In this document: piece after piece, positions 258 through 18,605 of the stretch
How positions within the stretch are numbered: position 1 is the first letter of the stretch
How the letters are laid out: each line of letters opens with the position of its first letter
Source of the DNA: a virus
Length of the DNA stretch: 22,583 nucleotides
Strand: one strand, 5' to 3'
Virus genome (UHGV): UHGV-1292143
Position numbers and translations under genes: made by a program
Notes under the pieces: model-generated
The model's input: only the letters and a program-made list of their open reading frames with translations
The model's database searches: none
Told to the model about the DNA's origin: nothing

Positions 258-383
258 CAGATACCAGTCCCCCCATATCAAGAACATTGGCTAACGTATA
301 AGCGGCTTTTTGCTGGAATGATGGATCTTGTCCTGATTTAAGCCCAAACGCTCGACGTTGCGCTTCTGTATCATTCCAACCGG

Positions 384-902: not shown

Positions 903-916
903 CCTTGCTCCTTAAT

Positions 917-1528: not shown

Positions 1529-1538
1529 ATCAGCCCCC

Positions 1539-2146
<608 letters not shown>

Positions 2147-2235
2147 ATGTCATTTGTCCATTGTGCCAACTGTTATTATGGATATCATAATTCATACGAA
2201 TCGCGCTGCTACAGGATGTATAGCAACCTTAATAA

Positions 2236-3495
2236 TTATTTGAATATATCAGTTATAGTTGGGTAATTATACATCTTAAGCTTATCTCTAAATTTCATAG
2301 AAAATATAGGGTCTACCTTACATCTGTGTAAGAGCTTTGCAATCCTTAGCTCCCTCTCATTCATAATATCTTTGTATTCGCTATCAATACTTTCCTGAAT
2401 TTGCTGATTCTCAACAGGAGACGGTTTAGTAATTTTATCCCATTGATAAGTTGGCTTCGTAGTGTAATTTAAACTATCATCATTTTGGAGTAATGCCTCA
2501 AGACGAGACTTAGCATTTTCATATAGCATTCTATCTTGGGGCAACATACTTGCAACACGCATTTCCATTTCAATTTCCGATACTATCATTTCAAGTTGAC
2601 GTTTTTCCGTTTCAATAGCTAAAAGAAATGGAAATAGGGCTTCTTGCTTAATCATTTGACAATTCAAATTATTGTTTATGCCACTAAGTAATTTTGTAAA
2701 TGAGAACTTCTTTAAAGGCTGCTGATTTATAACACTCTGTCTAACTGGCATTGTGTAGTTCGGTGTTTTTTCAAGTGTTTTCTTCACTTGCTCTATAGCA
2801 ACATTAGGAGTGTTGAAAACAGTCTTTGCTGGAATACGTAGCACCATAAACCCCTCCTTTATTGAATATTCATCACGAATACGATCTCGCTCTATTTGTT
2901 CTGGGGATGAATGCCATGCTGCACCATCAATTTCTATAATTTGGCGTCCATTTACGACAAAATCAAAACGATAACGCTTATAGGGCACTTGCATTTCAAG
3001 CACTAAGTCAGGAGAAACTAACATTCCAGATTTAGGTTTAAGATTAAACTCTGCAACCATTTTACGAAGAAATGCCTCCTCAGCCGGAGATTCGCAACCT
3101 TTGCAAAATATATCAAGCCAGTTTTCTGCGTCAGCGTCAACAGTTTGCCACCATGCTAACAGTCCACGTCGGTGTCCATATAATCGTTCATCTGACGGTT
3201 TTGTTAATGGCTTTGTTAACGGTTTAACTAAGGGTTCATTTAACGGCTTTAATAACGGCTTAAATAACGGCTTATTTAACGAATTTAATAACGATTTATT
3301 TAATGGTTTGATTGACGGTCTATTTGACGACTCAATCGGTGGTTTAGATGATGATTTGTTTTTTTTATCAAAACCTACGATAGTTATATATGCTACATAT
3401 AGCATCATGCCTGCAACAGGCCATACACATGGATAAATCACGTAACACAACAGTAATAGAACAATAGTCCCAAAAAATGTTAACTTCTTCCGCAT
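2236..3495 (-). CDS. membrane-anchored protein with DUF559/Vsr-like (PD-(D/E)xK-type) endonuclease-like domain (419 aa)
   Basis: N-terminus MRKK + hydrophobic hairpin (FFGTIVLLLLCYVIYPCVW / MMLYVAYITIVGF); Pro/Lys-rich tetrapeptide repeat linker; core YRFDFVVNGRQIIEIDGAAWHSSPEQIERDRIRDEYSIKEGFMVLRIP matches the DUF559 signature (RxDF ... IEIDG..H ... D..R ... G..VLR); C-terminal ~190 aa predicted helical, unknown. Confidence 0.6.
   Translation of the reverse strand: MRKKLTFFGTIVLLLLCYVIYPCVWPVAGMMLYVAYITIVGFDKKNKSSSKPPIESSNRPSIKPLNKSLLNSLNKPLFKPLLKPLNEPLVKPLTKPLTKPSDERLYGHRRGLLAWWQTVDADAENWLDIFCKGCESPAEEAFLRKMVAEFNLKPKSGMLVSPDLVLEMQVPYKRYRFDFVVNGRQIIEIDGAAWHSSPEQIERDRIRDEYSIKEGFMVLRIPAKTVFNTPNVAIEQVKKTLEKTPNYTMPVRQSVINQQPLKKFSFTKLLSGINNNLNCQMIKQEALFPFLLAIETEKRQLEMIVSEIEMEMRVASMLPQDRMLYENAKSRLEALLQNDDSLNYTTKPTYQWDKITKPSPVENQQIQESIDSEYKDIMNERELRIAKLLHRCKVDPIFSMKFRDKLKMYNYPTITDIFK
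3195..3356 (-). repeat. about 13 imperfect tandem 12-bp units inside the 2236-3495 CDS, encoding K-P-L-x tetrapeptide repeats
   Basis: Plus-strand units such as TTAATAACGGCT / TAAATAACGGCT / TATTTAACGAAT; translated on minus strand as LNKP LFKP LLKP LNEP LVKP LTKP LTKP. Confidence 0.8.
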
Positions 3496-3720
3496 ACCAA
3501 ACTCTTTGCATCAATAAAGGGGACTGGCTTATATAATCAAATCACATGCCCGAAATAAAAGATGACCAACACCAACGGAAATCACACTCTAAACTAATAT
3601 ACATTAACACTTAATATCGCCATCACAATTGATTGATTATGCTAATTTAAAAATGATATTTTTACAGAGAATATACAGCTCTACAAGATGACTATTACAC
3701 CAAAATTTAAAAAAATCATT

Positions 3721-3766
3721 GGCAACCTTGTAGAATTGATATTAACAATCGATTCTACGGGTTGCC
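3721..3766 (-). terminator. long inverted repeat (GGCAACCTTGTAGAAT-N15-ATTCTACGGGTTGCC) followed on the minus strand by a T-run; likely terminator of the 4874-3811 transcript
   Basis: 15-16 bp arms with one mismatch; minus-strand sequence after the hairpin is AATGATTTTTTTAAATTTTGG. The 15-nt loop is large for a terminator. Confidence 0.45.
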
Positions 3767-3810
3767 ATTTGCTACATAGAGTGTAATAAGAGAGGATGGT
3801 TCAACGGAAA

Positions 3811-4350
3811 TTACCACCAGCTACTGGCTTTTTTCTCCCTTGCTTTACCTTCGCTTTGCAATAAATCCTTACTCCCTGAAGAGATGTTACGATTTGCATC
3901 AGCTTCAGACTGAATCACATCAGTTCTTGCAGCCCTTTCCTTTAGCTCCTGCTCAATGAAATCGTTTTCTCTCTTAACTCGAGCAGCTTTCGCTTGTAGC
4001 TCAAGCTTCATTTTCTCAAGTTCTAATTTACGAAGCTCATCTTCATAAGCCTGATTTCGCTTTTTCTCTGCGGTCAATTCAGCTTCACGCTTCGCTCTGC
4101 GCTCATTTTCCGCCGCTATACGAGCTTTCTCGCGGGCATTTGCAGCTGCCGCAGCCCTCTCTCTTCTTAAACGTTCAGCATTTTCTTGCTTGCGAATTTG
4201 CTCTAGTCTGGCATCCTCCAGCTGCTGTTCTCTTGCTCGACCTTCACTTTCTGCCTGGGCAATAGCAGCTATTTGACTCTGCAATGAATTAGCAAATACA
4301 TTGCCTGTATTCAAAGCAGCCAAACATAAATAACAAATAATTTTCTTCAT
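3811..4350 (-). CDS. secreted highly charged ER/K-rich coiled-coil protein (179 aa)
   Basis: N-terminal signal peptide MKKIICYLCLAALNTGNVFA; mature part is E/R/K/A-rich helical (TolA-domain-II-like composition). Starts 11 nt after the stop of the upstream lipoprotein gene. Confidence 0.65.
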   Translation of the reverse strand: MKKIICYLCLAALNTGNVFANSLQSQIAAIAQAESEGRAREQQLEDARLEQIRKQENAERLRRERAAAAANAREKARIAAENERRAKREAELTAEKKRNQAYEDELRKLELEKMKLELQAKAARVKRENDFIEQELKERAARTDVIQSEADANRNISSGSKDLLQSEGKAREKKASSWW

Positions 4351-4361
4351 ATCTTATTGAG

Positions 4362-4874
4362 TTATTTTTTATCAGGACATGTAGCATTAGGTTGAATGCG
4401 CGTTTCGTTTTCTTTCGTTGAAATCAAAGCCGCGATTCCAGGGGCAAATTGGCAAGCTCTACCAACCTGTGTAGATGTATAGACTTTAGTACCTTCCTTG
4501 TAAGTAAGAGATACACCTTCAACAATTGATTTATCACTTACCATAGAACCAGCAGCTGCGCCAAGAGCTCCACCGCCAGCACCACCAGCAACTGCACCCA
4601 AGGTAGAAGTTCCTTTAATATTATATCCAGCAACACTACCAGCTACTGCACCGAGAACAGCACCGAAAGTCTGAGCTGCTTGTTTATTAGCTGTATTATC
4701 AACTTTTACTTTGGCTGGGAGAACAGAGATTATATTTACTACTCTTGTTTCTTGTTTTGAATTAAGTTGGGCTGTGTCGTACACATCTGCCGCATATTCA
4801 GCACCATTAGACTGACACCCTGAGAGAAAAATTGCAGAAACAACCATGACGCATAAAGAAGAAATTTTAGCCAT
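4362..4874 (-). CDS. SlyB/Pcp-like glycine-zipper outer-membrane lipoprotein (about 170 aa from the chosen start)
   Basis: Lipobox AIFLSG|C after a signal peptide; Gly/Ala zipper GAVLGAVAGSVAGYNIKGTSTLGAVAGGAGGGALGAAAGS; overall resemblance to E. coli SlyB. Start chosen at ATG 4872-4874 (MAKISS...); alternatives are 4883 or the track start 4934. Confidence 0.65.
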   Translation of the reverse strand: MAKISSLCVMVVSAIFLSGCQSNGAEYAADVYDTAQLNSKQETRVVNIISVLPAKVKVDNTANKQAAQTFGAVLGAVAGSVAGYNIKGTSTLGAVAGGAGGGALGAAAGSMVSDKSIVEGVSLTYKEGTKVYTSTQVGRACQFAPGIAALISTKENETRIQPNATCPDKK

Positions 4875-5163
4875 TAGAATCATCCCAGAAAAAAAATATA
4901 ATCCAAGAAAATCTATCACATAAGCCAAATACAAACAAGATTAATCCTATTGATGTATATCAATTATTATAAAAAATACGATCTTCATTGCTGAAGCTGC
5001 GTTATATTAAGTCTAAAAAAATCAACTATCGACATTATATGCTCTGCTAATAATTTACACTTGATTTAGTTGAGTTGGTTTAATATTGACACTAACTCAC
5101 TCTCTAATTATATACAATTTCCAATTTTATATGCGCATATATGGAAACCTATACCAACAGCAT

Positions 5164-5180
5164 GTTGCTCTAATAAATTT
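5164..5180 (+). promoter_or_regulatory. C1-repressor-type operator (P1 Op51-like) overlapping a promoter
   Basis: GTTGCTCTAATAAATTT, one mismatch to the P1 C1 operator consensus ATTGCTCTAATAAATTT as I recall it; TTGCTC acts as a -35 with TAAGTC 17 bp downstream (5188-5193). Confidence 0.6.
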
Positions 5181-5218
5181 GTCTTTTTAAGTCACGAATG
5201 CTATCTTTTCGCATCATA

Positions 5219-5247
5219 TTGACCTTTTAATCGTTCAGGCTTATAGT
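5219..5247 (+). promoter_or_regulatory. sigma70-type promoter for c4-icd-ant (-35 TTGACC, 17-bp spacer, -10 TATAGT)
   Basis: TTGACC at 5219-5224 and TATAGT at 5242-5247; sits downstream of the operator, as for the constitutive second promoter of P1 immI. Confidence 0.5.
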
Positions 5248-5367
5248 TCCGCCGTCGTAGCAAATTCTGCGACCGGGTTTAGCAGCCTGAATGATTGTGC
5301 GGACAGCCGCAGATATCCGATATTGCGGTATTTTTGTGTCCGTAAAACCGCGTTACGCCCAAATTAT

Positions 5368-5444
5368 GGTGGGACGTGATGGGGAGGCTTCGGCCTGCTG
5401 GTTTCACAATCGCCAGTCTGCTAACCCCGTCACGTCCTGCCACC
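5368..5444 (+). ncRNA. c4: C4-like antisense RNA (77 nt) of the immunity-I region
   Basis: GGTGGGACGTGATGGGG ... CCCCGTCACGTCCTGCCACC closes a long stem; internal hairpins AGGC-UUCG-GCCU and CUGG-UUUCACAAUCG-CCAG. Loop sequence CACAATC is complementary to GATTGTG at 5293-5299 and at 5477-5483, the latter just upstream of the icd GAGG Shine-Dalgarno (5483-5486). Confidence 0.55.
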
Positions 5445-5494
5445 TGTTTAGCAGCGGGTAGCAGGTTGTTAAACCTGATTGTGAGGCCGTAACT

Positions 5495-5716
5495 ATGGTT
5501 AATGCCAATCCTTACGCACGCCAAGAATTCATCTGGCGTTTCTATTCCTGTAAAAAACACCACTATCACTTCGTCATCGCAGCAACAGAAGACGAAGCAC
5601 GCTCTCAATTGCCTGATGGCCCCTGCATTTTTACTGCCCGTTTTTCAACTAACTCGCGCAATTCACTTAGTTACTGGAACCTCCCCTTCTCTGCCGACGT
5701 TCAGGGGGATTTATGA
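5495..5716 (+). CDS. icd: Icd-like small protein (73 aa), translationally coupled to ant
   Basis: 73-aa ORF whose stop overlaps the ant start (ATGA at 5713-5716); position downstream of c4 matches P1 immI organisation. Confidence 0.65.
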   Translation: MVNANPYARQEFIWRFYSCKKHHYHFVIAATEDEARSQLPDGPCIFTARFSTNSRNSLSYWNLPFSADVQGDL

Positions 5717-6747
5717 AAAAACCTCTCGTCACCCGTAATGAAATAGCCGAAGCGATCGCCCTGCATACAACCTGTATGCCGACACGGGAGATCCCCGGCG
5801 CAATTGCCAACTATTTCATGATAACCAGACGTTTTTATACCCGAACAGATAAGGCTGTGATCAACAAGCTACTGATAGCCGAGATCAGGGATTATTTGAT
5901 TGAACAAGGACGTCTACGTTACGCAACAGTGGCAGCAGAAATGAGAAAGGAGGCACACAGAGTGACCGGTAAAAATTTGAATATTGAAAAACCAGCACCT
6001 GTTACGTCAGCTACGCCAACACCAGCCGTGAATGTCATCCCCAACATCGGAGACACAATCGACAGCCAAACATTGTTGAAGATGGTCAATGAGGCACGGA
6101 AATTATGTAGCGAAAAACCAGTTCGCAATAATGATTTCATTGCCAGAGTTAAGGATGAACTTGAAGGAGAAACCTACGAAATTTTCGTAGGTCAAAAAAA
6201 CGGCGCAGAAATAGATATTATAACAATGACCTACAAACAAGCCCTGCGAGTTGCCGCGCGCGAGTCAAAAGCGGTCCGCCGTTCGCTGATCGACAAACTG
6301 GAAGAATTACAGCAGGCAAACTCCCCTACCCCATCGATCCCCCAGACATTACCAGAAGCCCTACGCCTGGCTGCCGAGTTAGCAGAACAGAAAATGCAGT
6401 TGGAACAACAGCTGGTGGCCGCAGCCCCTAAAGTCGATTTTGCCGACCGGGTATCAGTGGCCAATGGAATCCTGATCGGGAACTTTGCAAAGGTCGTTGG
6501 ACTTAAGCAAAACGCCCTTTTCTCATGGTTGCGCCAGAACGGCATTCTCATGGCTTTTGGTGCGCGCAAAAACGTACCGCGCCAACAGTACATCAACGCC
6601 GGGTATTTCACGGTGAAAGAAGTGGTGTTGGATGATGAAAATGGCTACCAGATACGGCTGACGCCCCAATTAACGGGTAAAGGCCAGCAGTGGTTAACTC
6701 GCAAGCTACTTGATGCTGGTTTGTTAAAACCAGTAGCAATAGGTTAA
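5713..6747 (+). CDS. ant: antirepressor Ant-like protein with C-terminal KilA-C/ANT domain (344 aa)
   Basis: C-terminal region PKVDFADRV...IGNFAKVVG...LFSWLRQNGIL...GYFTVKE...GKGQQWL is a KilA-C-type antirepressor domain; gene order c4-icd-ant. Confidence 0.65.
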   Translation: MKKPLVTRNEIAEAIALHTTCMPTREIPGAIANYFMITRRFYTRTDKAVINKLLIAEIRDYLIEQGRLRYATVAAEMRKEAHRVTGKNLNIEKPAPVTSATPTPAVNVIPNIGDTIDSQTLLKMVNEARKLCSEKPVRNNDFIARVKDELEGETYEIFVGQKNGAEIDIITMTYKQALRVAARESKAVRRSLIDKLEELQQANSPTPSIPQTLPEALRLAAELAEQKMQLEQQLVAAAPKVDFADRVSVANGILIGNFAKVVGLKQNALFSWLRQNGILMAFGARKNVPRQQYINAGYFTVKEVVLDDENGYQIRLTPQLTGKGQQWLTRKLLDAGLLKPVAIG

Positions 6748-6758
6748 CAAAAGAAAAA

Positions 6759-6784
6759 ACCTGCCAGCAAACTGACAGGTTTCT
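6759..6784 (+). terminator. rho-independent terminator after ant
   Basis: ACCTGCCAG-CAAA-CTGACAGGT hairpin (one mismatch) followed by TTCT. Confidence 0.5.
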
Positions 6785-6824
6785 GAGCAGATCGACCAAC
6801 CCGATCTGGATCGAGTTAGAAAAA

Positions 6825-6841
6825 TTTGCTCTAATAAATTT
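6825..6841 (+). promoter_or_regulatory. C1-repressor-type operator (P1 Op53-like) in front of kilA
   Basis: TTTGCTCTAATAAATTT; same extended promoter architecture as at 5164 (TTGCTC ... 17 bp ... TAAGTG). Confidence 0.6.
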
Positions 6842-6910
6842 CGTTTTCTAAGTGCAAAGAATCACCATTTCGAGCTGGTGATTGAAGGTTGATGCAAATT
6901 TGGAGAAAAA

Positions 6911-7711
6911 ATGCAACAAACATTCAATGCGGATATGAATATATCAAACCTTCATCAAAATGTCGATCCTTCAACCACTCTTCCCGTTATTTGTGGTGTT
7001 GAAATTACGACCGACCGCGCTGGCCGTTACAACCTTAATGCTCTACACAGAGCGAGCGGACTCGGTGCCCATAAAGCGCCAGCTCAATGGCTAAGAACGC
7101 TGTCAGCTAAACAGCTCATCGAAGAGCTTGAAAAAGAAACTATGCAGAATTGCATAGTTTCGTTCGAAGGCCGTGGCGGCGGCACTTTTGCCCATGAATT
7201 GCTCGCAGTGGAGTACGCTGGTTGGATTTCTCCCGCGTTTCGGCTGAAGGTAAACCAGACATTTATCGACTATCGAGCTGGAAGATTACAACCTGCTATT
7301 CCGCAGAGTCTCCCTGAAGCTCTCCGTTTGGCTGCCGAACTGGCAGAGCAAAAGCAACGGCTGGAGCAAAAAATGCTTATGGATGCACCTAAAGTCGAAT
7401 TCGCCGAACGCGTTGCTACCGCCAGCGGGGTTCTAATCGGCAACTATGCCAAAGTGCTCGGCCTGGGCCAAAACTATCTCTTCACCTGGTTGCGTGATAA
7501 CGGAATTCTGATCGCAACCGGTGAACGCAGGAACGTCCCCAAACAAGAATACATATCCCGTGGATATTTCACCCTTAAAGAAACCGTGATCGATACAAGC
7601 AATGGAAGCAGGATTTCTTTCACGACTCGTATAACCGGCAAAGGTCAGCAGTGGCTGATGAAGCGATTGCTTGATGCTGGTGTGCTGGTACCTGTCGCGG
7701 CAACGCGCTAA
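6911..7711 (+). CDS. kilA: KilA-like protein: KilA-N domain plus KilA-C domain (266 aa)
   Basis: N-terminal VICGVEITTDRAGRYNLNALHRASGLGAHKAPAQWLRT...FAHELLAVEYAGWISPAFRLKV (KilA-N-like); C-terminal domain about 65% identical to the Ant C-terminus; GGAGA Shine-Dalgarno before the ATG. Confidence 0.7.
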   Translation: MQQTFNADMNISNLHQNVDPSTTLPVICGVEITTDRAGRYNLNALHRASGLGAHKAPAQWLRTLSAKQLIEELEKETMQNCIVSFEGRGGGTFAHELLAVEYAGWISPAFRLKVNQTFIDYRAGRLQPAIPQSLPEALRLAAELAEQKQRLEQKMLMDAPKVEFAERVATASGVLIGNYAKVLGLGQNYLFTWLRDNGILIATGERRNVPKQEYISRGYFTLKETVIDTSNGSRISFTTRITGKGQQWLMKRLLDAGVLVPVAATR

Positions 7712-7740
7712 CAGACGTAGTAAGAACCACCAGCATTGTA

Positions 7741-8241
7741 ATGCTGGCTAAAGTCACTTTCCTGAGCTGTATAACGATGAGCGATTTTACTTTTTCTGGC
7801 TATGAATTGGCCTGCTTTGTAACACACTCCGGTCTATCCCGTAGCGCCGGGCATATCCTGTCGCAATGTGCAAATCTCGCGGCAACAACCAGTGAATACT
7901 TCATTCACAAGCCTCACCGCCTGATCGCGGCAGAAACTGGTTATAGCCAATCAACCGTCGTTCGTGCATTCCGTGAAGCTGTAAACAAAGGAATCCTGTC
8001 TGTAGAGATTGTTATCGGCGATCACCGTGAACGTCGCGCTAACCTGTACCGGTTTACACCATCCTTTTTGGCCTTCGCACAACAAGCCAAAAATGCGCTG
8101 ACTGAAAGCAAATTAAAGATCTCTTCAGCGGCAACCAAGGTTAAAGCTGTTATCGCTAAGACATTGGCTTTATTTAATTTTATATCCACACCCCATGTCA
8201 AAATGATACCCCCTCCCCCTGTCAGGATGACGTGGCAATAA
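7741..8241 (+). CDS. repL: RepL-like lytic replication protein, N-terminal reading frame (166 aa); appears truncated by a frameshift
   Basis: Immediately follows kilA as in P1; frame ends at 8239-8241 just after a CCCCCTCCCCCT tract. Confidence 0.55.
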   Translation: MLAKVTFLSCITMSDFTFSGYELACFVTHSGLSRSAGHILSQCANLAATTSEYFIHKPHRLIAAETGYSQSTVVRAFREAVNKGILSVEIVIGDHRERRANLYRFTPSFLAFAQQAKNALTESKLKISSAATKVKAVIAKTLALFNFISTPHVKMIPPPPVRMTWQ

Positions 8242-8585
8242 AGAATAAGAAGTCACAAGTTAAAAAAACAAAAAGATCAGTTTCCGGCGGTGCCGGAACG
8301 TCCAGACTCAAAAAATTGACTTCATGGATCGCTGAGGCAAAAGCAAAGGCTGACAATCTGCGGTTATCCCAAAAACGCGCTCAAAAACATGAGTTCAAGC
8401 AGAAAGTAGAGGCGGCTGCGCGGAAATATGCTTACCTGAAGAACAAGCGTTCGCCTGATATTGGCGGGATATCAAACTTCGATAACCTACCGCATTGCAT
8501 GACGGTAAACGAAGCTCTTAATGCGGTTTTAGCCAAAAATAAAGATAACGATCAATGGGGTATACCGGCGGGATTCAGAGGGTGA
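8232..8585 (+). CDS. continuation of repL in a different frame (117 aa), or a separate small basic protein
   Basis: Frame is open from 8178 with no ATG. Restoring 1 nt would fuse it to 7741-8241 to give 281 codons, the length I recall for P1 RepL. Confidence 0.4.
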   Translation: MAIKNKKSQVKKTKRSVSGGAGTSRLKKLTSWIAEAKAKADNLRLSQKRAQKHEFKQKVEAAARKYAYLKNKRSPDIGGISNFDNLPHCMTVNEALNAVLAKNKDNDQWGIPAGFRG

Positions 8586-8799
8586 TAGATTGCTCTAATC
8601 TGGAGTCACCTGGCGTTTTCAGTATGGATTTTCTTTGGCGCGGTCTGGCCATTAGGGATCATGTTTGCTGCAACGTTTCTTCTGATGTGGGTATTCACCC
8701 TTCCAGGTGATTTCTATAGAAAAAAAGCCAGACATTGATACAATCGCTGCGGGTGCTTGAGGCTATCTGCTTCAGGCATTACCCGAAAAGCAGATAGAA

Positions 8800-8871
8800 G
8801 AAAGCCCCAGATAACATTACGCGTCCTGCAAGACGCTTAACATTAATCTGAGGCAATATCTATGCTTAGCA
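8800..8871 (-). ncRNA. possible Sok-like antisense RNA
   Basis: Minus-strand promoter-like TTGACC (8901-8906) - 18 bp - TAATCT (8877-8882); the transcript would be complementary to the mok start region at 8862. Inferred from hok/sok architecture only. Confidence 0.3.
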
Positions 8872-9068
8872 TACGTAGATTAGCCTCTTACCGACCAAAA
8901 GGTCAAGGAGAAGCAGGCTATGAAGCAGCAAAAAGCGATGTTAATCGCTCTGATCGTCATCTGTTTAACCGTCATTGTGACGGCACTGGTAACGAGGAAA
9001 GACCTCTGCGAGGTACGAATCCGAACCGGCCAGACGGAGGTCACTGTCTTCACAGCCTACGAATCTGA
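8862..9068 (+). CDS. mok-like leader ORF overlapping hok in another frame
   Basis: 68-aa ORF starting upstream of hok and overlapping it, as in hok/mok/sok loci. Confidence 0.4.
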   Translation: MLSIRRLASYRPKGQGEAGYEAAKSDVNRSDRHLFNRHCDGTGNEERPLRGTNPNRPDGGHCLHSLRI

Positions 9069-9075
9069 AAGGTAA
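8920..9075 (+). CDS. hok: Hok/Gef-family type I toxin (51 aa)
   Basis: MKQQKAMLIALIVICLTVIVTALVTRKDLCEVRIRTGQTEVTVFTAYESER: N-terminal transmembrane helix plus conserved TRKDLCEV and FTAYE motifs; AAGGAG Shine-Dalgarno 9 nt upstream. Confidence 0.85.
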   Translation: MKQQKAMLIALIVICLTVIVTALVTRKDLCEVRIRTGQTEVTVFTAYESER

Positions 9076-9097
9076 GAGACCTGGCGGGGAGAGATCC

Positions 9098-10435
9098 CAT
9101 AAGCGCTAACTTAAGGGTTGAACCATCTGAAGAATGCGACGCCTCGGTGCCTCGTTAAGACGATGCCTCGCGTTCTTCAATTGCGTTTTGTAGGCTGTCA
9201 GGGATACTGTCCCACGAATGGCCACCTGTAAGCTCCAGATGACCATTTTTGTTATTCTCCACAACGAGTTAGTTCTTCTTTTCGGATCCGGCACTTCTGG
9301 GGGGGAAATCCAGCGATGGCTGGATTATGTCGTCAATTAAAAATGCGGCGAGTAGATTAGCAAATATCCACGCTTTCGCGAGTTCAGGTTCCTTTGCACG
9401 CAAAGCATCCAGGTGCAGCAAACTTTTGAGCCGCTTAAAAGCCAGTTCAATTTGCCATCGCAGACGGTAACAATCAGCCACTTGCTCTGCTGAATATTCA
9501 TCTTCCGGTAATGATGTTAGCAATAGCACATGGCCCGCTGCTTCCAGCGTTTCCGCCTGAACTACTCGTCCTTTTCGACGATTCTCGCTGAGCAGTCGGG
9601 TTTTACTGATTAATGCTTTTTCGGGAGGAAGTGATACGGCAATGAGACGTGCCGGAAAGGGAGCTCCGGCTTTTTTATTACCTGAATTGCCTATCATTAC
9701 AGTGGTTTCACCGTTCTTACCGCAATCCAGCCCGCGCAGAAAACCCATCATGTCAAAGCGCATTCCTTCTGCAGTTAACCAGCGCAATCCTCGCCAGTGA
9801 ACCCGGACGATATAATCAGCTTCTCCAAAAGCAAGTGAGCGGATACATTCGGGACGCGAACCGAATCCCCGGTCAGCAATGCGTATCTCGTCTGCCGTTT
9901 GCGCAAATCGGTCCAGCCGTTCAGCGTCTCTGCTGTCGGTTAGCTCAAAATCAGTGAACTGACAGGTATGAGGATCATATCCCATATGTAGTCGCCATTC
10001 AGCGCTGCCGCCCCCGGGCGCACTGATTGCTGTTCCATCGACAAGACGCAATCTCTTTCCGCTTGTACAACCCGTAACTGCGGCGCGTACAGCAAGTGTT
10101 TGTGCGGCAAGTATGCCAAACCAGTCGGCGGCATTCCGCAGCCGCTTCAGGAGAGCCACGTCAGATAATGTTGCAACGTCATGGAGCTGAGCCCATGCAG
10201 TGACTTCACGTAATGACATCCCCCCGGGCCGTAAGCCAGCCCCAGACGTAGCAGAGTTGCAGCATCACGAATTTCGCGGCGGCGGGTTAGAGCCCCGGCA
10301 TTACGTGCCGAAGTATCCAGTTCTTCGGGCTTACCAATATGGGCCAGAATTGCTGACCAGTTATCGTGAGAGTAATTCATCGGCACGTTAAATCATATCA
10401 GGCGTAATACCACAACCCTTAAGTTAGCGCTTATG
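9098..10435 (-). mobile_element. IS186-like insertion sequence (IS4 family), 1338 bp, with a 10-bp target duplication
   Basis: Perfect 23-bp terminal inverted repeats CATAAGCGCTAACTTAAGGGTTG; flanking direct repeat GGAGAGATCC (9088-9097 and 10436-10445) within a GGGG-N-CCCC target, typical for IS186. Confidence 0.85.
9269..10386 (-). pseudogene. IS186 transposase, split by a -1 frameshift in a G-run
   Basis: N-terminal 56 aa (MPMNYSHDNW...GPGG) and the 316-aa DDE body (MSLREV...YRLRWQIELAFKRLK) are in different frames. The junction is a C6 run at 10220-10225 (G6 on the coding strand); restoring one G makes a continuous ~372-codon ORF. Confidence 0.7.
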
Positions 10436-10491
10436 GGAGAGATCCCCGCCACTCTTCGTGTGTCAGGTATCCTCAATGCACCCTTTCCTCT

Positions 10492-10522
10492 CCAAATAAA
10501 AAAGCTCCCGAAGGAGCTTTAA
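10492..10522 (-). terminator. rho-independent terminator ending the minus-strand late operon
   Basis: Minus strand reads AAAGCTCC-TTCG-GGAGCTTT followed by TTTTTATTT, immediately after the stop of the 10540-11049 gene. Confidence 0.6.
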
Positions 10523-10539
10523 AATACAAGGGATGACTC

Positions 10540-11049
10540 TTAATCCCACTCAATCCAGTTGTAGACGATACGAAGTGACGGGCGCACAGCGGCAGTCACA
10601 TCTTCGGTACTAAAGTCGATTGCATCACTGTAGATTTTGCAGTCCAACATTTCAATTGTTGTAGCAGCTTTTGTCACAGCGTTAACCCCGGAAGCTTTGG
10701 ATTCAGGGGTAGCAGCCATCGTGATATCAACATAGTCCTTCGCCGCAATGCGATCCTTAATGAACTGAAGAATATCGCCTTCGATAGTCTCCACGCACTG
10801 GACCTGGATTTCCCCAGAGTTTCGAATTGCTCCGTGCTGGTTGAACTTCACACCATTCGGACCATAGTCCTCCACATCCTCTCGAGTCATTTCAGGGATT
10901 TGCGACGTGCGAACCAGTACGCTGATATCTTCATGGCCTGCAAAAGTGAGCTGGAATTCAGAAGATACCAGTCGTTCGCCTTTGGCCGCGTTGGCAGTAT
11001 AGCGGCCCTTAATAAATTTACGGTTTCCCTTAGTGTTATTGTGCCCCAT
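10540..11049 (-). CDS. phage tail tube-like protein (169 aa)
   Basis: Pattern resembles T4 gp19-family tube proteins (FQLTF... ; C-terminal LRIVYNWIEWD versus gp19 ...LALDYWE); AAGGA Shine-Dalgarno. Assignment from memory. Confidence 0.5.
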   Translation of the reverse strand: MGHNNTKGNRKFIKGRYTANAAKGERLVSSEFQLTFAGHEDISVLVRTSQIPEMTREDVEDYGPNGVKFNQHGAIRNSGEIQVQCVETIEGDILQFIKDRIAAKDYVDITMAATPESKASGVNAVTKAATTIEMLDCKIYSDAIDFSTEDVTAAVRPSLRIVYNWIEWD

Positions 11050-11060
11050 ATAAAATCCTT

Positions 11061-11642
11061 TTACTGGAACGCCCGAACAATATCGGAGCTGTTATATATC
11101 GAAGAACCGGTCAACTGGAGGTTGACGGTGTTTTTCAGGAAATATCCATTACTGTCCCTTGGCGCATCGAGATCAAAACTTAAGTCCTGGATGGCGACAT
11201 CGGTGATGTTGATCCGGCGACCAATGTTTAGCGTCACGCGCTCCGGGATTCGACCACCAACATTGGCCGCTTTTAGTTCCGGGCTAATCATGGCTGTCAA
11301 CGCGGCGATAGCGCCTGAAACTTCAATGAATGGATTGTTCAAAGCAATGAAAGTTACAGGCAGCGTGAACGTCGGCGGAGTCCCCCCTTCCCAAACCATT
11401 AAGCTATTCCAACGGGCAACCGACGTTGTTTCAGTACCTACTTGCACAAAACCACCCAGAGCACCAGAAACAGATCCCATGGACATACCGGTAAACGGCG
11501 CTTCCCAATTCTGGGCCATGTTCATTGCCGCTCCCTGGCTGATATATCCGGTAACCTGGTACTGAGAGTTCGTTAAAGTAACTTTCAGATATGGCGATAC
11601 ACCGTCAGCCTGGCTGTAAACCCCATAAGCTATAGGAGCCAT
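11061..11642 (-). CDS. phage late/virion protein of unknown function (193 aa)
   Basis: ORF in the late operon; start preceded by a GC hairpin rather than a canonical Shine-Dalgarno. Confidence 0.6.
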   Translation of the reverse strand: MAPIAYGVYSQADGVSPYLKVTLTNSQYQVTGYISQGAAMNMAQNWEAPFTGMSMGSVSGALGGFVQVGTETTSVARWNSLMVWEGGTPPTFTLPVTFIALNNPFIEVSGAIAALTAMISPELKAANVGGRIPERVTLNIGRRINITDVAIQDLSFDLDAPRDSNGYFLKNTVNLQLTGSSIYNSSDIVRAFQ

Positions 11643-11652
11643 TCAAGTTAAA

Positions 11653-11670
11653 GGCCGGAGTTCTCCGGCC
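11653..11670 (-). promoter_or_regulatory. GC-rich hairpin between the acidic-protein gene and the 193-aa gene
   Basis: GGCCGGAG / CTCCGGCC stem; on the minus strand it lies between an AGGAGG motif and the ATG at 11642. Confidence 0.4.
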
Positions 11671-11677
11671 TCCTCCT

Positions 11678-12493
11678 TTAGCCAAGGCGCTTACGGCGCA
11701 GTTTCATTGACTTTTTGCGGGCAAGTTTTGCCGCGCCGGTCTGGGCTTTTCGACGCACTTTTTTCAGCGCCGATTTTTGAGCCGCAGTCAGACGTTTTTT
11801 ACGCAGGCGTTTACGGATGAGTTTGATCTCACCGTTACGAACAACCTTCTTAAATGCTTCAGTCAGCATTTCATCAGAAGTGCCAGCAACAACAAACGCC
11901 GCTTCCAGTTCGTCGCGGTCGTCGCTATCTAAACCAGCGATAGAGGCACCAACATCAGCAGCTGCGTCGTCGTCTTCATCGTCAGCCAGTGCTTCGATCA
12001 GGTCATCATCTACACCGCATGCTGCGAGGAAGTTAGCAACATTTGCCCATGCTTCGTTATAGGCATCGTCCTGTTCTTCTGTAACTTCGGAGTCGTCGTC
12101 ATCAGAGATACCAGCGATAGCCTGAACGAAACCATCAAGGGAGTCGAAAGTCAGATCACCGCTATCAGCCCAGGCGAAAACGGCGTCGGCCGCATCACTC
12201 AACGCATTCTGCATAGCACTTCGATTTGCAGCTTCCAGAATCATCTGGTGCGCCTGTTCGACGGTCCATTCTTTACCGTCTTTCCCTTCCAGGATTTGCT
12301 CAGGAGCCGTGGCAGATGGAGCGTTATCGTTAGTCTGTGCCGCCGGTTCCGGATTATTATTAATAACCGGATCTGTTGTCGGTTCGGCGCTTGCTCGGGC
12401 AGACTCCATCAACTGCACAAGATCAGAGTTCAAAGCGAAACGAGACAGTCCATTCCCCAAAAATACCCCGGATTGAAAAAAGTTTTTGCTCAT
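11678..12493 (-). CDS. very acidic protein with a strongly basic C-terminal tail (271 aa); possible scaffold or internal virion protein
   Basis: D/E-rich body (many DDDD runs) and C-terminal KLIRKRLRKKRL...RRKRLG; AAGGA Shine-Dalgarno 7 nt upstream; starts 10 nt after the stop of 12503-14008. Confidence 0.65.
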   Translation of the reverse strand: MSKNFFQSGVFLGNGLSRFALNSDLVQLMESARASAEPTTDPVINNNPEPAAQTNDNAPSATAPEQILEGKDGKEWTVEQAHQMILEAANRSAMQNALSDAADAVFAWADSGDLTFDSLDGFVQAIAGISDDDDSEVTEEQDDAYNEAWANVANFLAACGVDDDLIEALADDEDDDAAADVGASIAGLDSDDRDELEAAFVVAGTSDEMLTEAFKKVVRNGEIKLIRKRLRKKRLTAAQKSALKKVRRKAQTGAAKLARKKSMKLRRKRLG

Positions 12494-12502
12494 TGTATTT
12501 CC

Positions 12503-14008
12503 TTACTTAATAAGCAGCGGTACGCCCTGGATACGACGGGCTACGCCAGTCGGGCAGCAGGCCCAGACTACTTCCCATTTATCGAATTCCGCCTGCGTAA
12601 CTTTCAGCACATACGGTTCTGTACCGTCAGCATCAGGATCACGAGGAGCCACCAGAGCGCCGGAGGCGACAAAGCGATCCAAAAGTTTGGTCATCCCTTT
12701 AGTCAGGCCAGACTCAGTAATGCCGTCCGGGTTATGCTTCATCTGTCGGGCTAACTGGACAAAGAAACGGCTGATTGCGTTCATCAGGGATGGGACGTGC
12801 TGGAAATGCAGATAGTTGTCCTGCGTGCAGCAAGTTAAAGCATCATCGATGATCATCTGGCCCGAAGTACCTACAGATACTTTATTGAGTCGGCCCTTGA
12901 CCATAGCTTCTTCGTCCGGGGTGTCTTCAGGATACAGCGGCTGAAGTGATGCACGAGCAATGACGGCACGTTCTTCACCAGCCGGTGAGTAATGCCAACC
13001 GCCGACATCGGAGTTTTTCTTGACGCCACGAGCTTTCGCCGCATACGCCGCGCCAGACAGACCGAAGACCACGCGGGATTGGGTCCATTTGTCTTTGCAG
13101 GAGAACGGGAAATGATAGACAGCACAGCTTACATAATCGGTACCAAGTAAACCGGTATCTTCAACAGCAGAGATCGCCGCATTGTCATAGCAACCCAGGC
13201 CGAGAACAGCGGTGTGCATGTACGGCGCATTGTTCAGCACTTTCACCGCACGCAGGTAAGCAGCAGTGGAAATGTTCGACTGATCGCCGTTGGTACCGCC
13301 AGTGAACGCCAGCGATTTTTTATTTGTTACTTTCGCCGTCGAAATCAGCTCTTCATTAACAACCGCGCGCAGATATTTAGAACGGGCTTCCAGAGCCGTA
13401 GGCAGATAACACAAGCGGCCCATGTCATCTTTCGCTTCTTCCGCCAAAGACACAGTGTGTGTCTCCAGGGTCGTTACCACACCGAGCGAAGTCGTCTGGG
13501 TCAGTTTTAAGAGGAAGCGTTCATTACCCGCGCTGTCCGCTGTTGCCGTTTCGATGGTTAACTCACGGGTAGGAGAAATACACGGATCACCATCATCAAC
13601 GTAGATAGCAAAGGCTTCGCCGCTATCAAGTTCAATTTCAGAACCGTATGGCAACGCACTGTAAGCCGGTTCGCCTGATTCATCGAACATAATAATCGGG
13701 AACTTCGCATCATCCGGAACAGCACGGACAACATAACCAGACGTTTGCTGAATAGCTTCGTACACATGGCGAATTGGTTCGAACTGTGAGCCGGAGGACG
13801 GCTTCAGCGGTTCGCCGAGAACATCTTCGTAATTGGACTCAGTAACCGCAAGAACAGTAAACGGCTTGCCACGCGCAAATACGCCAATACCAGCCCACAA
13901 GCTGCTATTTAATGCAACACCGGTAGATAACGTCGCATCGGCATTGATCGGGCTAACAGCGACACCGGATGCATTACCTAATGACTGTTGAATTGAATAT
14001 TGAGACAT
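12503..14008 (-). CDS. large late structural protein (501 aa), possibly tail sheath
   Basis: Size and position between the head-precursor gene and tube-like genes; function is inferred from gene order only. Confidence 0.5.
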   Translation of the reverse strand: MSQYSIQQSLGNASGVAVSPINADATLSTGVALNSSLWAGIGVFARGKPFTVLAVTESNYEDVLGEPLKPSSGSQFEPIRHVYEAIQQTSGYVVRAVPDDAKFPIIMFDESGEPAYSALPYGSEIELDSGEAFAIYVDDGDPCISPTRELTIETATADSAGNERFLLKLTQTTSLGVVTTLETHTVSLAEEAKDDMGRLCYLPTALEARSKYLRAVVNEELISTAKVTNKKSLAFTGGTNGDQSNISTAAYLRAVKVLNNAPYMHTAVLGLGCYDNAAISAVEDTGLLGTDYVSCAVYHFPFSCKDKWTQSRVVFGLSGAAYAAKARGVKKNSDVGGWHYSPAGEERAVIARASLQPLYPEDTPDEEAMVKGRLNKVSVGTSGQMIIDDALTCCTQDNYLHFQHVPSLMNAISRFFVQLARQMKHNPDGITESGLTKGMTKLLDRFVASGALVAPRDPDADGTEPYVLKVTQAEFDKWEVVWACCPTGVARRIQGVPLLIK

Positions 14009-14023
14009 AACTTTCCCTGTTAT

Positions 14024-14041
14024 GCGCCCCGCACGGGGCGC
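14024..14041 (-). promoter_or_regulatory. perfect 8-bp GC stem hairpin between the head-precursor and sheath-like genes
   Basis: GCGCCCCG / CGGGGCGC with no downstream U-run; likely an mRNA-stability or attenuation element rather than a full terminator. Confidence 0.4.
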
Positions 14042-14067
14042 TATGTTAAACGGAGAACTTCCCCTGA

Positions 14068-15774
14068 TTACTCAGAGTCACCGGCATCAATCGTGTCGCT
14101 GCTTATAAAGTTAAGCCCGCCTTTTTTGGCCATTGTCAGCGTTACACGAGTGAAGTAATCAGCGCCGTTGCGTGGGTGCATATCGTTGATAGCCGAACCC
14201 CACAGCGTGGTACGGTTGACCAGCACCGGAGTGGTCGGATGCTGGAACGGGATGGCCGGGACAGCATCACCAGTCACGAAGCCTGCTTTACCCGGATTTT
14301 CATCACGGACGTAGCACAGCACATCCATCGAGCTGAACTGAATGTTCTCTGTCGTTAAGTTCTTACAAATACCAGCAGGTACTTCGTACACTTTCACGTT
14401 ACCGAACAGGGTACCGATGTAGTGAACATACGGAGTCTGGATATAGTCTTCGGCTGGCTGGAAGAAATCCTTCGGCAACTGTTTGAAGAAAGATGCTGCA
14501 TCAGCACCAGCAAACATCCCCATCGCACCAGAAGATTTAACGCGCTCAATAATGTCGCGATATACAGTCTGGAATTTGCCACGAATGATGGTTGCCCATA
14601 CATCAAAGGACTGGTTAACCGGCAGAGCGATGTCAAAGGTGTCGGTCGCAAGAGTACGCCAGATCATGATGCGAAGACGCAGCATATCCTGTTCATGAGA
14701 CAGGTATTCCTTCAGGGTGCGGAACTGTAGGGAACCCAGGTCCAGACCAAATTCACGCTGTGCTACATACGCCGCCTGTACCGTGTGCTCAGCCGCGATA
14801 ACGAACTGACTTGGGAACAGGGTGTATTTCTTCATTTCGTGGTTGATCAGCGGGATCAGCTCAGGAGCGGCTTCAATATTGATTTCCGTCTCAATTGCGA
14901 TCTCAGTGCCTTTATCCGGCGCTTTGGAGAACGACAGGGCAATCTGACCAATGTTGTAGTTCAGAGAGCAGGTAACAGTGATTTGCTCACCAGCAGCATT
15001 AGTAAACGAGTGAAGTAGGCTGCCGGAACCGTTATCAACAACAGACTTAATACGGTTAACGTAGATGTTAGTGCGACCTTTTCGGATTGGTACATTCTGG
15101 CCTTCGAAGTCTTCCATCTTGAAGGTTGCGGTTTTGCTGGTGCCATCGGAGCTTGCCACCAGCACATAGCGGCGACGTAACTGGCTGTACACACCGACGG
15201 ATTGCATGTCCAGAACATCACCAGCAGCATAAGAACCAAAAGATGAACCTGCCACGTTAAAGACTTCATAGATGTCGGACTGGTCACGCGTAACCGGAAT
15301 GAAGGTACACGCATCAGCGGTAGCTGCCCCCAACTGAACAGGCAGGATCATCGCGAGGAATAAAGGCAGACGCATAACACCGTCAGAAACGCTCATCATC
15401 TCTGCTGCGACGGATTCCAGCATCGCTTTATTAGTGGCATCCATGCTATTGCGGGTGGACTCAATCAGGCAGTTTTCCAGCGTCTGGTGGCAGGAGGCCA
15501 GAATTTCCGGACGCGGCATAGATTTATGTGCTGCGGCGTAGTCAGCCAGTGCACTTGCCCACGCTGTAGCGATTTGAGCGGTGGCATTATCAGAGATACC
15601 CGCAAAAACCGGGTCTTTACGTGCAGCTTCAAGGATAGATGCGGCACGCGCGGCATCATCTTTAATGAATTGGTTATCAGTACCGAACTGCGCAGTGCTT
15701 GCCCAGCCAAGCACAGCTTTAGAGCGTTTTGCGATATCTGCAATACGATTCTGGTATTCGCGTAAGTTACTCAA
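14068..15774 (-). CDS. major head protein precursor (P1 gp23-like) with helical N-terminal delta-like domain (about 568 aa)
   Basis: N-terminal ~150 aa are helical/Ala-rich, then a large beta-rich body. Probable TTG start at 15772-15774 with AAGGAAGAG Shine-Dalgarno; the track start at 15795 has none. Sits next to parS/parB as I recall for P1 gene 23. Confidence 0.55.
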   Translation of the reverse strand: MSNLREYQNRIADIAKRSKAVLGWASTAQFGTDNQFIKDDAARAASILEAARKDPVFAGISDNATAQIATAWASALADYAAAHKSMPRPEILASCHQTLENCLIESTRNSMDATNKAMLESVAAEMMSVSDGVMRLPLFLAMILPVQLGAATADACTFIPVTRDQSDIYEVFNVAGSSFGSYAAGDVLDMQSVGVYSQLRRRYVLVASSDGTSKTATFKMEDFEGQNVPIRKGRTNIYVNRIKSVVDNGSGSLLHSFTNAAGEQITVTCSLNYNIGQIALSFSKAPDKGTEIAIETEINIEAAPELIPLINHEMKKYTLFPSQFVIAAEHTVQAAYVAQREFGLDLGSLQFRTLKEYLSHEQDMLRLRIMIWRTLATDTFDIALPVNQSFDVWATIIRGKFQTVYRDIIERVKSSGAMGMFAGADAASFFKQLPKDFFQPAEDYIQTPYVHYIGTLFGNVKVYEVPAGICKNLTTENIQFSSMDVLCYVRDENPGKAGFVTGDAVPAIPFQHPTTPVLVNRTTLWGSAINDMHPRNGADYFTRVTLTMAKKGGLNFISSDTIDAGDSE

Positions 15775-15825
15775 TTTACTCTTCCTTAAACACAAGGCAC
15801 TTGTGTGAATCCCTTTTCGGAAGAG

Positions 15826-15854
15826 ATTTTATTGAAAGTCACTTGTTGACTTTC
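15826..15854 (-). promoter_or_regulatory. candidate late promoter: palindrome GAAAGTCA-N5-TGACTTTC with a TAAAAT -10 hexamer 2 bp downstream
   Basis: Seen on the minus strand about 50 nt upstream of the head-gene start. Architecture (palindrome around -22/-25 plus -10, no -35) resembles P1 Lpa-dependent late promoters as I recall them. Confidence 0.35.
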
Positions 15855-15914
15855 TCGCGAAAAGTAATTTTTTAAATTTTTTGTGCGGGGAAGTGGACGG
15901 TGAATGCAGGCGTT

Positions 15915-15990
15915 AAATCGTGGGAATTTCAGTCTGAAATTCTCCTAAAAAACACATGCAAATCATAAGGTTAGTAATGAAATTGGTGCG
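15915..15990. other. parS: candidate parS centromere
   Basis: Immediately downstream of parB: inverted heptamer-like boxes AATTTCAG-T-CTGAAATT (15925-15941), an IHF-like site AATCATAAGGTTA (15961-15973), then AATGAAATTGG; compare P1 parS box A ATTTCAC with an internal IHF site. Confidence 0.45.
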
Positions 15991-16038
15991 GGACATTTTA
16001 GGAAGGGGAGGGGCTAACACCACCTCCCACCAGCGGGA

Positions 16039-17004
16039 TTATTCCCCAGCAGACATTTTCCCAATGATTTTTTTTATTGCTTCGTCAATTTCAGTTTGCA
16101 CTTCAGACGGGAGTCTGGAGAACTCGTAGGCGACAACCCGTTTTTTCGGATCGGACTTCTTTCGAGCATATTGGCGACGGTCAGAGAAGTCTCGCAGCTT
16201 CTCAACCACCACAGATTTAACCGGCGCGGGCTTCAGGCTTTTGCTTTCCGCTTTGAAGATAGCCAGTATCTTCGCTTTATCCTCTTTCGCGCCCTCAGTC
16301 TCTGCAATTCGTTCGCGCACCGTATCAACCAGCTCTTCAATAGGCACGCTTTTAGCGTTGGCATCCTCGGAGATCTGGAGCAGTAACTGGTAATCTGGCA
16401 GGGCGAGATCGCTGGCAACAGGGAAGACAGCAATCATCTCATCCGGCACCGCTGCCGCCTGGAACGCGCGCGTAACTTTAGCCTTTGAAATGTTCTCAGC
16501 GCGGGCGATCTCTTCTTTGGTCATGCTCTTACCATACATAACCTCGAAGCGTTTACCCAGTTCGCGCAGGGTGTGTTCGCGGGCTGTCTGGATATCAATG
16601 GCCAGCTGGCGTGCATCCGCCAGGCTGATCTCATCTTTCGTCACCAGAATCTCAAATTTCGTTTCATTGAAGATACACGCAGCGCGGCGACGTGATCCGT
16701 CCAATACCTCAATGCGCTCCCCAACCATACGACCGATAGCCGGGAAGAACTGTTGCAATTTAATGGTGCGGGAAATATCGCTTACCGACTCAGGGGTGAG
16801 CAGAGACTGATCGCGGCCGTTAACTGCCGGGTCAACGAACGTGCGCGACTCAATCTCACCACTCAGCACAACGGTAAGCAAAAATTTAGCCTGGCGGCCA
16901 GATTTTAGGGTAAAGGTTTTGGTGCCTTCACTGCCTTCAAGCATGCGAGCAAACTCGGAGCTATTCTTGCCCAGCACTCGTCCACGGGAAACTATTTTTT
17001 TCAT
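16039..17004 (-). CDS. parB: ParB partition protein, P1/P7 type (321 aa)
   Basis: Core ...FFPAIGRMVGERIEVLDGSRRRAACIF...KAKVTRAFQAAAVPDEMIAVFP... aligns with P1 ParB by eye at roughly 50% identity; ATGA overlap with the parA stop. Confidence 0.85.
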   Translation of the reverse strand: MKKIVSRGRVLGKNSSEFARMLEGSEGTKTFTLKSGRQAKFLLTVVLSGEIESRTFVDPAVNGRDQSLLTPESVSDISRTIKLQQFFPAIGRMVGERIEVLDGSRRRAACIFNETKFEILVTKDEISLADARQLAIDIQTAREHTLRELGKRFEVMYGKSMTKEEIARAENISKAKVTRAFQAAAVPDEMIAVFPVASDLALPDYQLLLQISEDANAKSVPIEELVDTVRERIAETEGAKEDKAKILAIFKAESKSLKPAPVKSVVVEKLRDFSDRRQYARKKSDPKKRVVAYEFSRLPSEVQTEIDEAIKKIIGKMSAGE

Positions 17005-18212
17005 GCCGCCTCACCCCTAACAAACTCAATTCGATCAAACACAGCCTTAGTGAAACGCTCGGCCTCGGTTCGTGCCTTCTTCAGCGCCTCTGCACTGCCT
17101 GGATACGATTGCGGGTTGGCACTGATTACGGTGTCGAAAGACTCGCCGCATCGCTCAAATCCATCCAGACGAGGCAGAGAAGAGTCCAGAATGTTGCTGG
17201 CGTAAACCTCACGCGCAAGGCTGTGTGATGTCTCGTGATCGCGCTTGCCGGTCATCTTCGACATAAAACCAATGCTGGCGCTTAAACGCGGTTCTACGCC
17301 TTCCTCCTCCAGTTGCTCCAGCATTTCTGGCAGACGGGTGAGATATTTCAGTGTTGAGTGGAAGTCAACCTGGGCTGGTGGGGTAGGGGTAAGCAGCAAA
17401 TCGCTGGCCGCCAGACCGTTGAGCAGGAACGGATCCAGGTGTGGACCGGTATCAATAAAGATAAAGTCATAATCATCCGCAACACGATCAATGATATTGC
17501 GTCGAAGGATTTCGTACTGATTTTGTCCGGGAAGATGCTCTTCAACCAGCTCTTTCCATTGGCTGGCAACAAAGCCATCGTCGATAGAGGCTGGAATCAC
17601 GTCTACGCCAGGAACGATGGTCGGACGAATCACCTCTTTGCGTAGCGTCTCCGCGTCCAAGTCGTTCAGCATCGCCTGCGCGGCGGTTTCCAGGATGGAA
17701 CCAATACTGTGAGTATGGTCGAGGAACATTGTGCTGGATGCCTGAGGGTCAAGGTCAATTACCAGAATGCGCAGATCGTGACGCAGTAAATCCTGATGCA
17801 CACGCAGAGCGTGCGCCAACGTGACTGTGGAAACCGTTTTGGATACGCCACCCTTCAGGTTTACGACAAAAATAACGTAAGGCGATTTGTGAATGTCGCG
17901 ATATTTTGGGATCTTACGGTGGGCATAGATATCAATGACGTTCTGGATGGTCAGCGCGTACTGTTCAACGTTACCGACCTGTTTCTTGTTGAACTGGTAC
18001 CCATCATCTTCCATCTCTTTGATGGCCTGCTCCACAATGCGGCGGCTCAGCTTCGGCAACTTTGCCACAGCGTTACGAGTGAACGTCTGATAATACTCGG
18101 TCTGATTGAACTCTTTGCGCTGATCTTCAATATCCTGACTCATGGCCTTAAGTAATGCGCTTGCACGAAGAGCTATGGTGCCGACACCGCCGTAATCGCG
18201 TTTCATCATCAT
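17001..18212 (-). CDS. parA: ParA partition ATPase, type Ia with N-terminal DNA-binding extension (about 400 aa)
   Basis: Deviant Walker A NLKGGVSKTVST, plus ...RILVIDLDPQ..., ...GFMSK..., LPRLDGFERCGESFDTVISANP; three consecutive ATGs at 18204-18212 behind an AAGGAG Shine-Dalgarno. Confidence 0.9.
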   Translation of the reverse strand: MMMKRDYGGVGTIALRASALLKAMSQDIEDQRKEFNQTEYYQTFTRNAVAKLPKLSRRIVEQAIKEMEDDGYQFNKKQVGNVEQYALTIQNVIDIYAHRKIPKYRDIHKSPYVIFVVNLKGGVSKTVSTVTLAHALRVHQDLLRHDLRILVIDLDPQASSTMFLDHTHSIGSILETAAQAMLNDLDAETLRKEVIRPTIVPGVDVIPASIDDGFVASQWKELVEEHLPGQNQYEILRRNIIDRVADDYDFIFIDTGPHLDPFLLNGLAASDLLLTPTPPAQVDFHSTLKYLTRLPEMLEQLEEEGVEPRLSASIGFMSKMTGKRDHETSHSLAREVYASNILDSSLPRLDGFERCGESFDTVISANPQSYPGSAEALKKARTEAERFTKAVFDRIEFVRGEAA

Positions 18213-18256
18213 CTCCTTATCATTTCGTATGAGTGAATTGTACGTTTGATTCTGCT

Positions 18257-18297
18257 ACGTGCAACTTATTTTGATTCGTGCGTAAATTATTGCACGT
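18257..18297 (-). promoter_or_regulatory. candidate par operator/promoter region (inverted repeat ACGTGCAA ... TTGCACGT)
   Basis: Inverted repeat directly upstream of parA; ParA-type autorepressor operators are imperfect inverted repeats at this position. Confidence 0.4.
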
Positions 18298-18299
18298 AA

Positions 18300-18600: not shown

Positions 18601-18605
18601 CACAC

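Follow-up and report, generated by a model that had tools for sequence, protein, structure and literature searches.

The IS186 element in the window, by which we mean the whole analysed stretch of 22,583 nucleotides of viral DNA (UHGV virus genome UHGV-1292143), is a genuine member of its family but a defective copy. What it lacks is the single uninterrupted 370-residue transposase reading frame that marks an autonomous copy. With a probability of about 0.88, we regard it as a vertically inherited pseudogene, which inserted intact and later lost one C in one sub-lineage of the plasmid that carries it. It is an ordinary insertion sequence pseudogene, already known and annotated as 'frameshifted' in RefSeq. 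The features on which the argument rests are collected in Table 1.

Table 1. Features of the IS186 insertion and its surroundings (window coordinates).
Feature	Position	Strand	Remarks
hokD-like type I toxin gene	8920..9075	+	PGAP annotation; IS 22 nt downstream
Target-site duplication GGAGAGATCC, left	9088..9097	.	10 bp, identical to 10436-10445
IS186 (IS4 family; PGAP 'IS4-like element IS421 family')	9098..10435	-	1338 bp; intact element 1339 bp
Terminal inverted repeat CATAAGCGCTAACTTAAGGGTTG, transposase 3' end	9098..9120	.	perfect 23-bp reverse complement of 10413-10435
Transposase pseudogene, whole span	9269..10380	-	PGAP, flagged 'frameshifted'
316-codon ORF with DDE catalytic domain	9269..10219	-	starts at Met55 of the intact protein
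N-terminal frame	10147..10380	-	54 authentic codons (to about 10219), 23 out-of-frame codons, stop
Coding-strand G6 run (CCCCCC on the + strand)	10220..10225	-	wild-type length
Lesion site	10226..10228	-	coding C run of 3 bases (+ strand GGG), against 4 (+ strand GGGG) in intact copies
Terminal inverted repeat, transposase 5' end	10413..10435	.	perfect 23-bp partner of 9098-9120
Target-site duplication GGAGAGATCC, right	10436..10445	.	10 bp, identical to 9088-9097

The assignment to IS186 is secure. The element encodes an IS4-type DDE transposase, has the 23-bp inverted repeats and the sequence identity of the family, and is bounded by a duplication of about 10 bp at a G/C-flanked target. A preliminary description of this DNA had reported perfect ends and a target duplication, and both the 23-bp repeats and the two 10-bp copies are confirmed. 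Alignment to the IS186 copy of E. coli K-12 MG1655 gives 1338 identical positions out of 1339, with a single 1-nt gap and no mismatches. The window copy thus shares with K-12 IS186 (IS186A/B, insL) its inverted repeats, the 10-bp duplication at a GGGG-N6-CCCC site, and the DDE_Tnp_1 and transpos_IS4_1 signatures; it differs in that one C is absent from a tract of four C and six G residues (C4G6) and the 370-residue reading frame is broken after codon 54.

The target of the insertion was a hairpin, GGCGGGGA-GAGA-TCCCCGCC, that constitutes a GGGG-N6-CCCC site, with GGAGAGATCC sitting within GGGG-AGAGAT-CCCC. The same GGGG-N6-CCCC pattern was found at five other IS186 copies that we inspected, and SaiSree et al. 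are said to have given GGGG(N6/7)CCCC as the IS186 target consensus in 2001. The empty site could be examined directly in one related plasmid, NZ_CP016549.1, which has a single copy of GGAGAGATCC and equals the window minus the element and one duplicate, except for one single-nucleotide polymorphism. IS186 thus arrived by clean transposition. Further P1-like plasmids match the flank only, as would fit an empty site, NZ_CP016549.1 being the one among them examined in this way. An IS186B copy with the direct repeat GGATCTCTCC has been described in the P1-like plasmid pSvP1 (Venturini et al. 2019, PMC6906374). It appears to be the same insertion site: GGATCTCTCC is GGAGAGATCC read on the other strand, the position between the lytic-replication module and bplB is the same, and in both plasmids rlfA/rlfB/pmgF have been replaced by a small toxin gene. 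The frameshift is not mentioned in the pSvP1 paper (PMC6906374).

The target hairpin lies 12-22 nt downstream of the hokD-like gene. The left junction of the element is 90.8% identical to the chromosomal mokC/hokC-IS186 junction, and the right junction aligns to K-12 at about position 15340-15422. On the K-12 chromosome, IS186 likewise follows hokC (gef) and hokE and occupies the homologous position in the 3' region of these hok genes; the window gene differs in being a plasmid-borne hokD-like copy with the target hexamer AGAGAT, where the K-12 chromosomal hexamer is AGTGAT. Chromosomal hokE and another Hok/Gef gene also directly adjoin an IS186 copy in chromosomal records described below. The hairpin at the 3' end of hok genes looks like a hot spot that IS186 has struck repeatedly. 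In the literature, such insertions are presumed to disrupt the element responsible for fold-back inhibition in hok mRNA (PMC3562002).

The transposase is encoded in two frames. The upstream frame starts at the ATG at 10380 (or, alternatively, at the GTG at 10386), reads MNYSHDNW...LAYGPGG, and then proceeds in the wrong frame as far as a stop at 10147. The second frame opens with an ATG directly after the G run, and its 316-residue product matches the DDE_Tnp_1 family (PF01609) with E = 1e-26. The preliminary description had divided the protein into a 56-residue N-terminus and a 316-residue DDE body in different frames; the body and the change of frame stand, but the N-terminal part has 54 residues from the annotated ATG and reaches 56 only if the GTG is used. 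Adding one base yields a protein of 370 residues, the length that PGAP gives for intact copies (WP_001300563.1), and the repaired translation is identical to that of the intact pLKSZ04 copy. This repaired protein scores 133.3 bits against the NCBIfam model transpos_IS4_1 (NF033592; cut-off, 115 bits) over residues 17-350. Given the span of the model, the deletion parts a conserved N-terminal portion of the transposase from the DDE domain. A sequence search of the PDB for a structural homologue that might reveal the role of the N-terminal 54 residues returned nothing usable (best E = 0.27).

The break falls at 10219-10230. The plus strand reads CAT CCCCCC GGG CC at 10217-10230, which corresponds to GG CCC GGGGGG ATG on the coding (minus) strand. 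Intact copies, namely that of K-12 MG1655 and the two same-site copies that we inspected base by base (pLKSZ04 and pNDM-M121), read GGC CCC GGG GGG ATG, or C4G6. The window reads GGC CCG GGG GGA TG, or C3G6, and an 80-nt query from the window accordingly aligned to 81 nt in other IS186 copies. It follows that what the window lacks is one C from the four-base run adjacent to the G run. The annotation agrees with this division: in PGAP/RefSeq, C3G6 copies are 'frameshifted' pseudogenes and C4G6 copies encode intact WP_001300563.1. The break had originally been placed in the G run itself, as a G6 where a G7 would give a continuous frame. A 1-nt deletion is indeed present, but six G residues are the wild-type number, and we reject the reading of G6 as a shortened G7 on the strength of the base-by-base comparison, which puts the extra base of intact copies in the C run. 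A seventh G would bring back the frame and, by coincidence, an unchanged protein, yet it is not the natural sequence. An obvious long run can therefore mislead, and the lost base was located only by comparison with intact copies. A second and longer homopolymer near the 3' end of the transposase gene, at 9298-9304 (G7 on the plus strand, C7 on the coding strand), has its wild-type length in the window.

The window belongs to a P1-like (IncY) phage-plasmid. Between 60 and 75% of its length aligns with phages P1 and P7 at about 97% identity, and positions 6-19466 (19.4 kb) are 100% identical in more than 10 E. coli plasmids, including pTetA_020022, pLR-25_1 and OQ534120-OQ534123. Both ends of the window (1-260 and 22147-22583) lie outside the alignment with P1 and P7. 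They resemble each other in inverted orientation, with about 86% identity over 100 nt, and in related records the corresponding positions are annotated as IS1-family transposases beside a truncated morphogenetic gene, which suggests that this segment of P1 backbone is bracketed by IS1 copies. Compared with P7 (8600-10100), the window contains at 8586-9087 a truncated 'membrane domain protein' fragment and the hokD-like gene. In this plasmid group, the two take the place of the genes that P1 and P7 carry between repL and the tail-tube-like genes, that is, rapA/rapB in P7 and rlfA/rlfB/pmgF in P1; the same gene replacement was reported for pSvP1 by Venturini et al. 2019 (Sci Rep, PMC6906374).

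To see how the C3G6 allele is distributed, we used a set of 5426 complete E. coli genomes, in which 2767 records contain 8458 IS186 copies. About 40% of complete E. coli genomes have the element, the median copy number being three. The exact in-frame C4G6 81-mer is present in 2658 of the 2767 IS186-bearing records, and the exact C3G6 80-mer in 13. Nine of these 13 are the same P1-like plasmid with the element at the same site. In PLSDB, C3G6 was matched in 11 among 924 plasmids, all belonging to the same P1-like lineage, and the two collections together hold 14 distinct plasmid records with C3G6 at that site. Their hosts and countries vary, as do the sequencing sources where these are recorded: the isolates come from human, chicken, duck and salad, there are records from China and Ecuador, and one plasmid is from a Cronobacter sakazakii isolated from food. 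Insertions at the same site were counted by the right junction, since the left junction also matches chromosomal hokC-IS186 junctions and is unusable for this purpose. The right junction is found in 219 E. coli genomes, and the C3G6 80-mer is absent from all but nine of them. The four remaining C3G6 copies are chromosomal and occupy four loci (Hok/Gef-cas3, entD-hokE, fiu-ybiX and mokC-dnaJ).

These counts bear on the most serious alternative, namely that the plasmid truly carries C4G6 and that a homopolymer base was dropped in base-calling or polishing. Several observations speak for it. The tract consists of two abutting homopolymers, and other tract lengths occur in public assemblies, with exact C4G5 in 78 and C4G7 in five of the 2767 IS186-bearing records; all length variants add up to about 96 record-level matches, counted per variant, so that a record may count twice. 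The G run is thus the commoner place of apparent frameshifts in general, though not in the window. Many of the C4G5 cases are in older long-read assemblies, as judged by accession series, and may be base-calling errors. The presence of C3G6 at four chromosomal loci likewise indicates that the tract attracts errors as well as, possibly, real mutations, and one of these chromosomal copies has a second homopolymer deletion, the run equivalent to 9298-9304 being two bases shorter, which suggests a noisy, error-prone assembly. At least one member of the plasmid lineage, pE2 (CP086663), was sequenced with Oxford Nanopore data only (PMC8889117), a platform prone to homopolymer deletions. Finally, the repL gene of the same plasmid was also struck in a homopolymer. 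Against all this, 14 separate records of one plasmid lineage share the allele, which is absent from about 200 other records with the element at the same site. C3G6 co-segregates with a backbone that is 100% identical, whereas an error driven by sequence context should strike many of the 8458 IS186 copies and is seen beyond these plasmids in only four records. Because the allele tracks the plasmid clade, a context-driven error is disfavoured. The preliminary description had left a sequencing artefact as an alternative; with the same allele and backbone recurring in plasmids from varied hosts and countries, one of them in Cronobacter, such an artefact seems unlikely as the source of C3G6.

A different reading of the length variants is that they are real, and that the C4G6 tract at codons 51-54 is a recurrent mutational switch that repeatedly turns individual copies of IS186 off, and perhaps on again. 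At least five different loci have C3G6 alone. Even so, we think it very improbable that the tract acts in this way. If the length variants were real mutations, the tract would be a built-in, slippage-driven limiter of IS186 activity.

It is more doubtful still that full-length transposase continues to be made at a low level from the C3G6 copy, by slippage of the ribosome or of RNA polymerase. The deletion itself has created a site that fits the formal X_XXY_YYZ pattern, and either a -1 ribosomal slip on C_CCG_GGG (or on G_GGG_GGA) or slippage of RNA polymerase would regenerate exactly GPGG-MSLREV and hence the wild-type protein. The layout also resembles that of the IS1 and IS3 families, whose -1 frameshifting transposases are encoded by two ORFs, which lie in different frames and overlap in a homopolymeric stretch. 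However, the two-frame layout is common to all functional IS1 and IS3 copies, whereas functional IS186 copies have one continuous ORF; the in-frame tract is the norm for IS186, which speaks against any programming, and the two-frame state is neither conserved nor functional. The window copy also differs from IS1 and IS3 in having no A-rich slippery motif and no stimulatory RNA structure downstream. The 103 nt from the site onward fold with a minimum free energy of -31.8 kcal/mol, compared with a mean of -33.1 kcal/mol for shuffled sequences (z = 0.42), and 126 of 200 shuffles fold at least as well as the real sequence. Heptamers made of G and C only are, moreover, poor shift sites in E. coli. 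IS4-family transposases are not known for frameshifting, and a literature search found no report of it for IS186. Programmed frameshifting was therefore rejected, given C4G6 in 2658 and C3G6 in 13 of the 2767 records and the lack of downstream structure. The preliminary description had asked whether reference copies carry the same G6 run together with a transposase made by programmed frameshifting; they do carry the G6 run, but within one continuous ORF.

Least probable of all is that the 316-residue ORF yields, from Met55, a truncated transposase that inhibits other IS186 copies by analogy with Tn5 Inh, which is without the 55 N-terminal residues of Tn5 transposase and inhibits that enzyme: the ATG lies exactly at the break and the ORF keeps the whole DDE domain, but the G run abuts the ATG and leaves no usable Shine-Dalgarno spacing, and an allele confined to one plasmid clade and singletons (13/2767 records) bears no sign of selection.

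We return to the vertically inherited pseudogene and to the order in which it would have arisen. The lytic replication initiator gene repL (window 7741-8585) is also a pseudogene, its lesion at 8191-8194 being a shortening of C5 to C4, with CACACCCCATG in the window and CACACCCCCATG in P7 and NZ_CP016549.1. The preliminary description had remarked that both disruptions sit in homopolymers, and this holds, with C5 reduced to C4 in repL and C4 to C3 in the transposase gene. Over 21 kb, the plasmid pNDM-M121 matches the window with 99.93% identity; the two differ by 13 mismatches and one gap, the latter being the transposase C. It has the repL C5-to-C4 frameshift together with an intact C4G6 transposase, and the repL event must therefore be the older of the two. 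The transposase C loss is found only in the 14-record sub-lineage. These comparisons between related plasmids support an order in which the intact IS186 insertion (219 genomes) came first, the loss of the repL C second, and the loss of the transposase C last. They also bear out the earlier proposal of an intact insertion followed by inactivation: the junction shared by 219 genomes is mostly without C3G6, and pNDM-M121 preserves the intact version in a nearly identical plasmid.

In the sequence of events that we propose, IS186 would have transposed intact into the GGGG-N6-CCCC hairpin just downstream of the hokD-like gene of a P1-like (IncY) phage-plasmid. Later, in one plasmid sub-lineage, one C would have been lost from the C4 part of the C4G6 tract at transposase codons 51-54, the likely cause being replication slippage in a short homopolymer. 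The deletion puts the DDE catalytic body out of frame, so that the copy can encode at most a 77-residue peptide, of which 54 residues are authentic. The internal ATG, if it is used at all, would give an N-terminally truncated protein. The copy presumably makes no transposase any more. Since the ends are intact, it should in principle be movable, but only by the transposase of a second IS186 element in its host. A preference for acting in cis is known from IS4-family transposases, for example those of IS10 and IS50. If the same cis preference applies to IS186 by analogy, the window copy is probably a stable fossil.

The importance of this finding is small in itself, as it concerns one defective IS copy among thousands. 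It does illustrate that homopolymer frameshifts need not be assembly errors. Two alleles, C3G6 and the C5-to-C4 change of repL, serve as clean lineage markers for an IncY/P1-like multidrug-resistance plasmid that has spread globally, in a group that includes pTetA_020022, pE2 and pLR-25_1. If RepL is non-functional, this widespread multidrug-resistance plasmid lineage may have lost the capacity for lytic replication as a phage.
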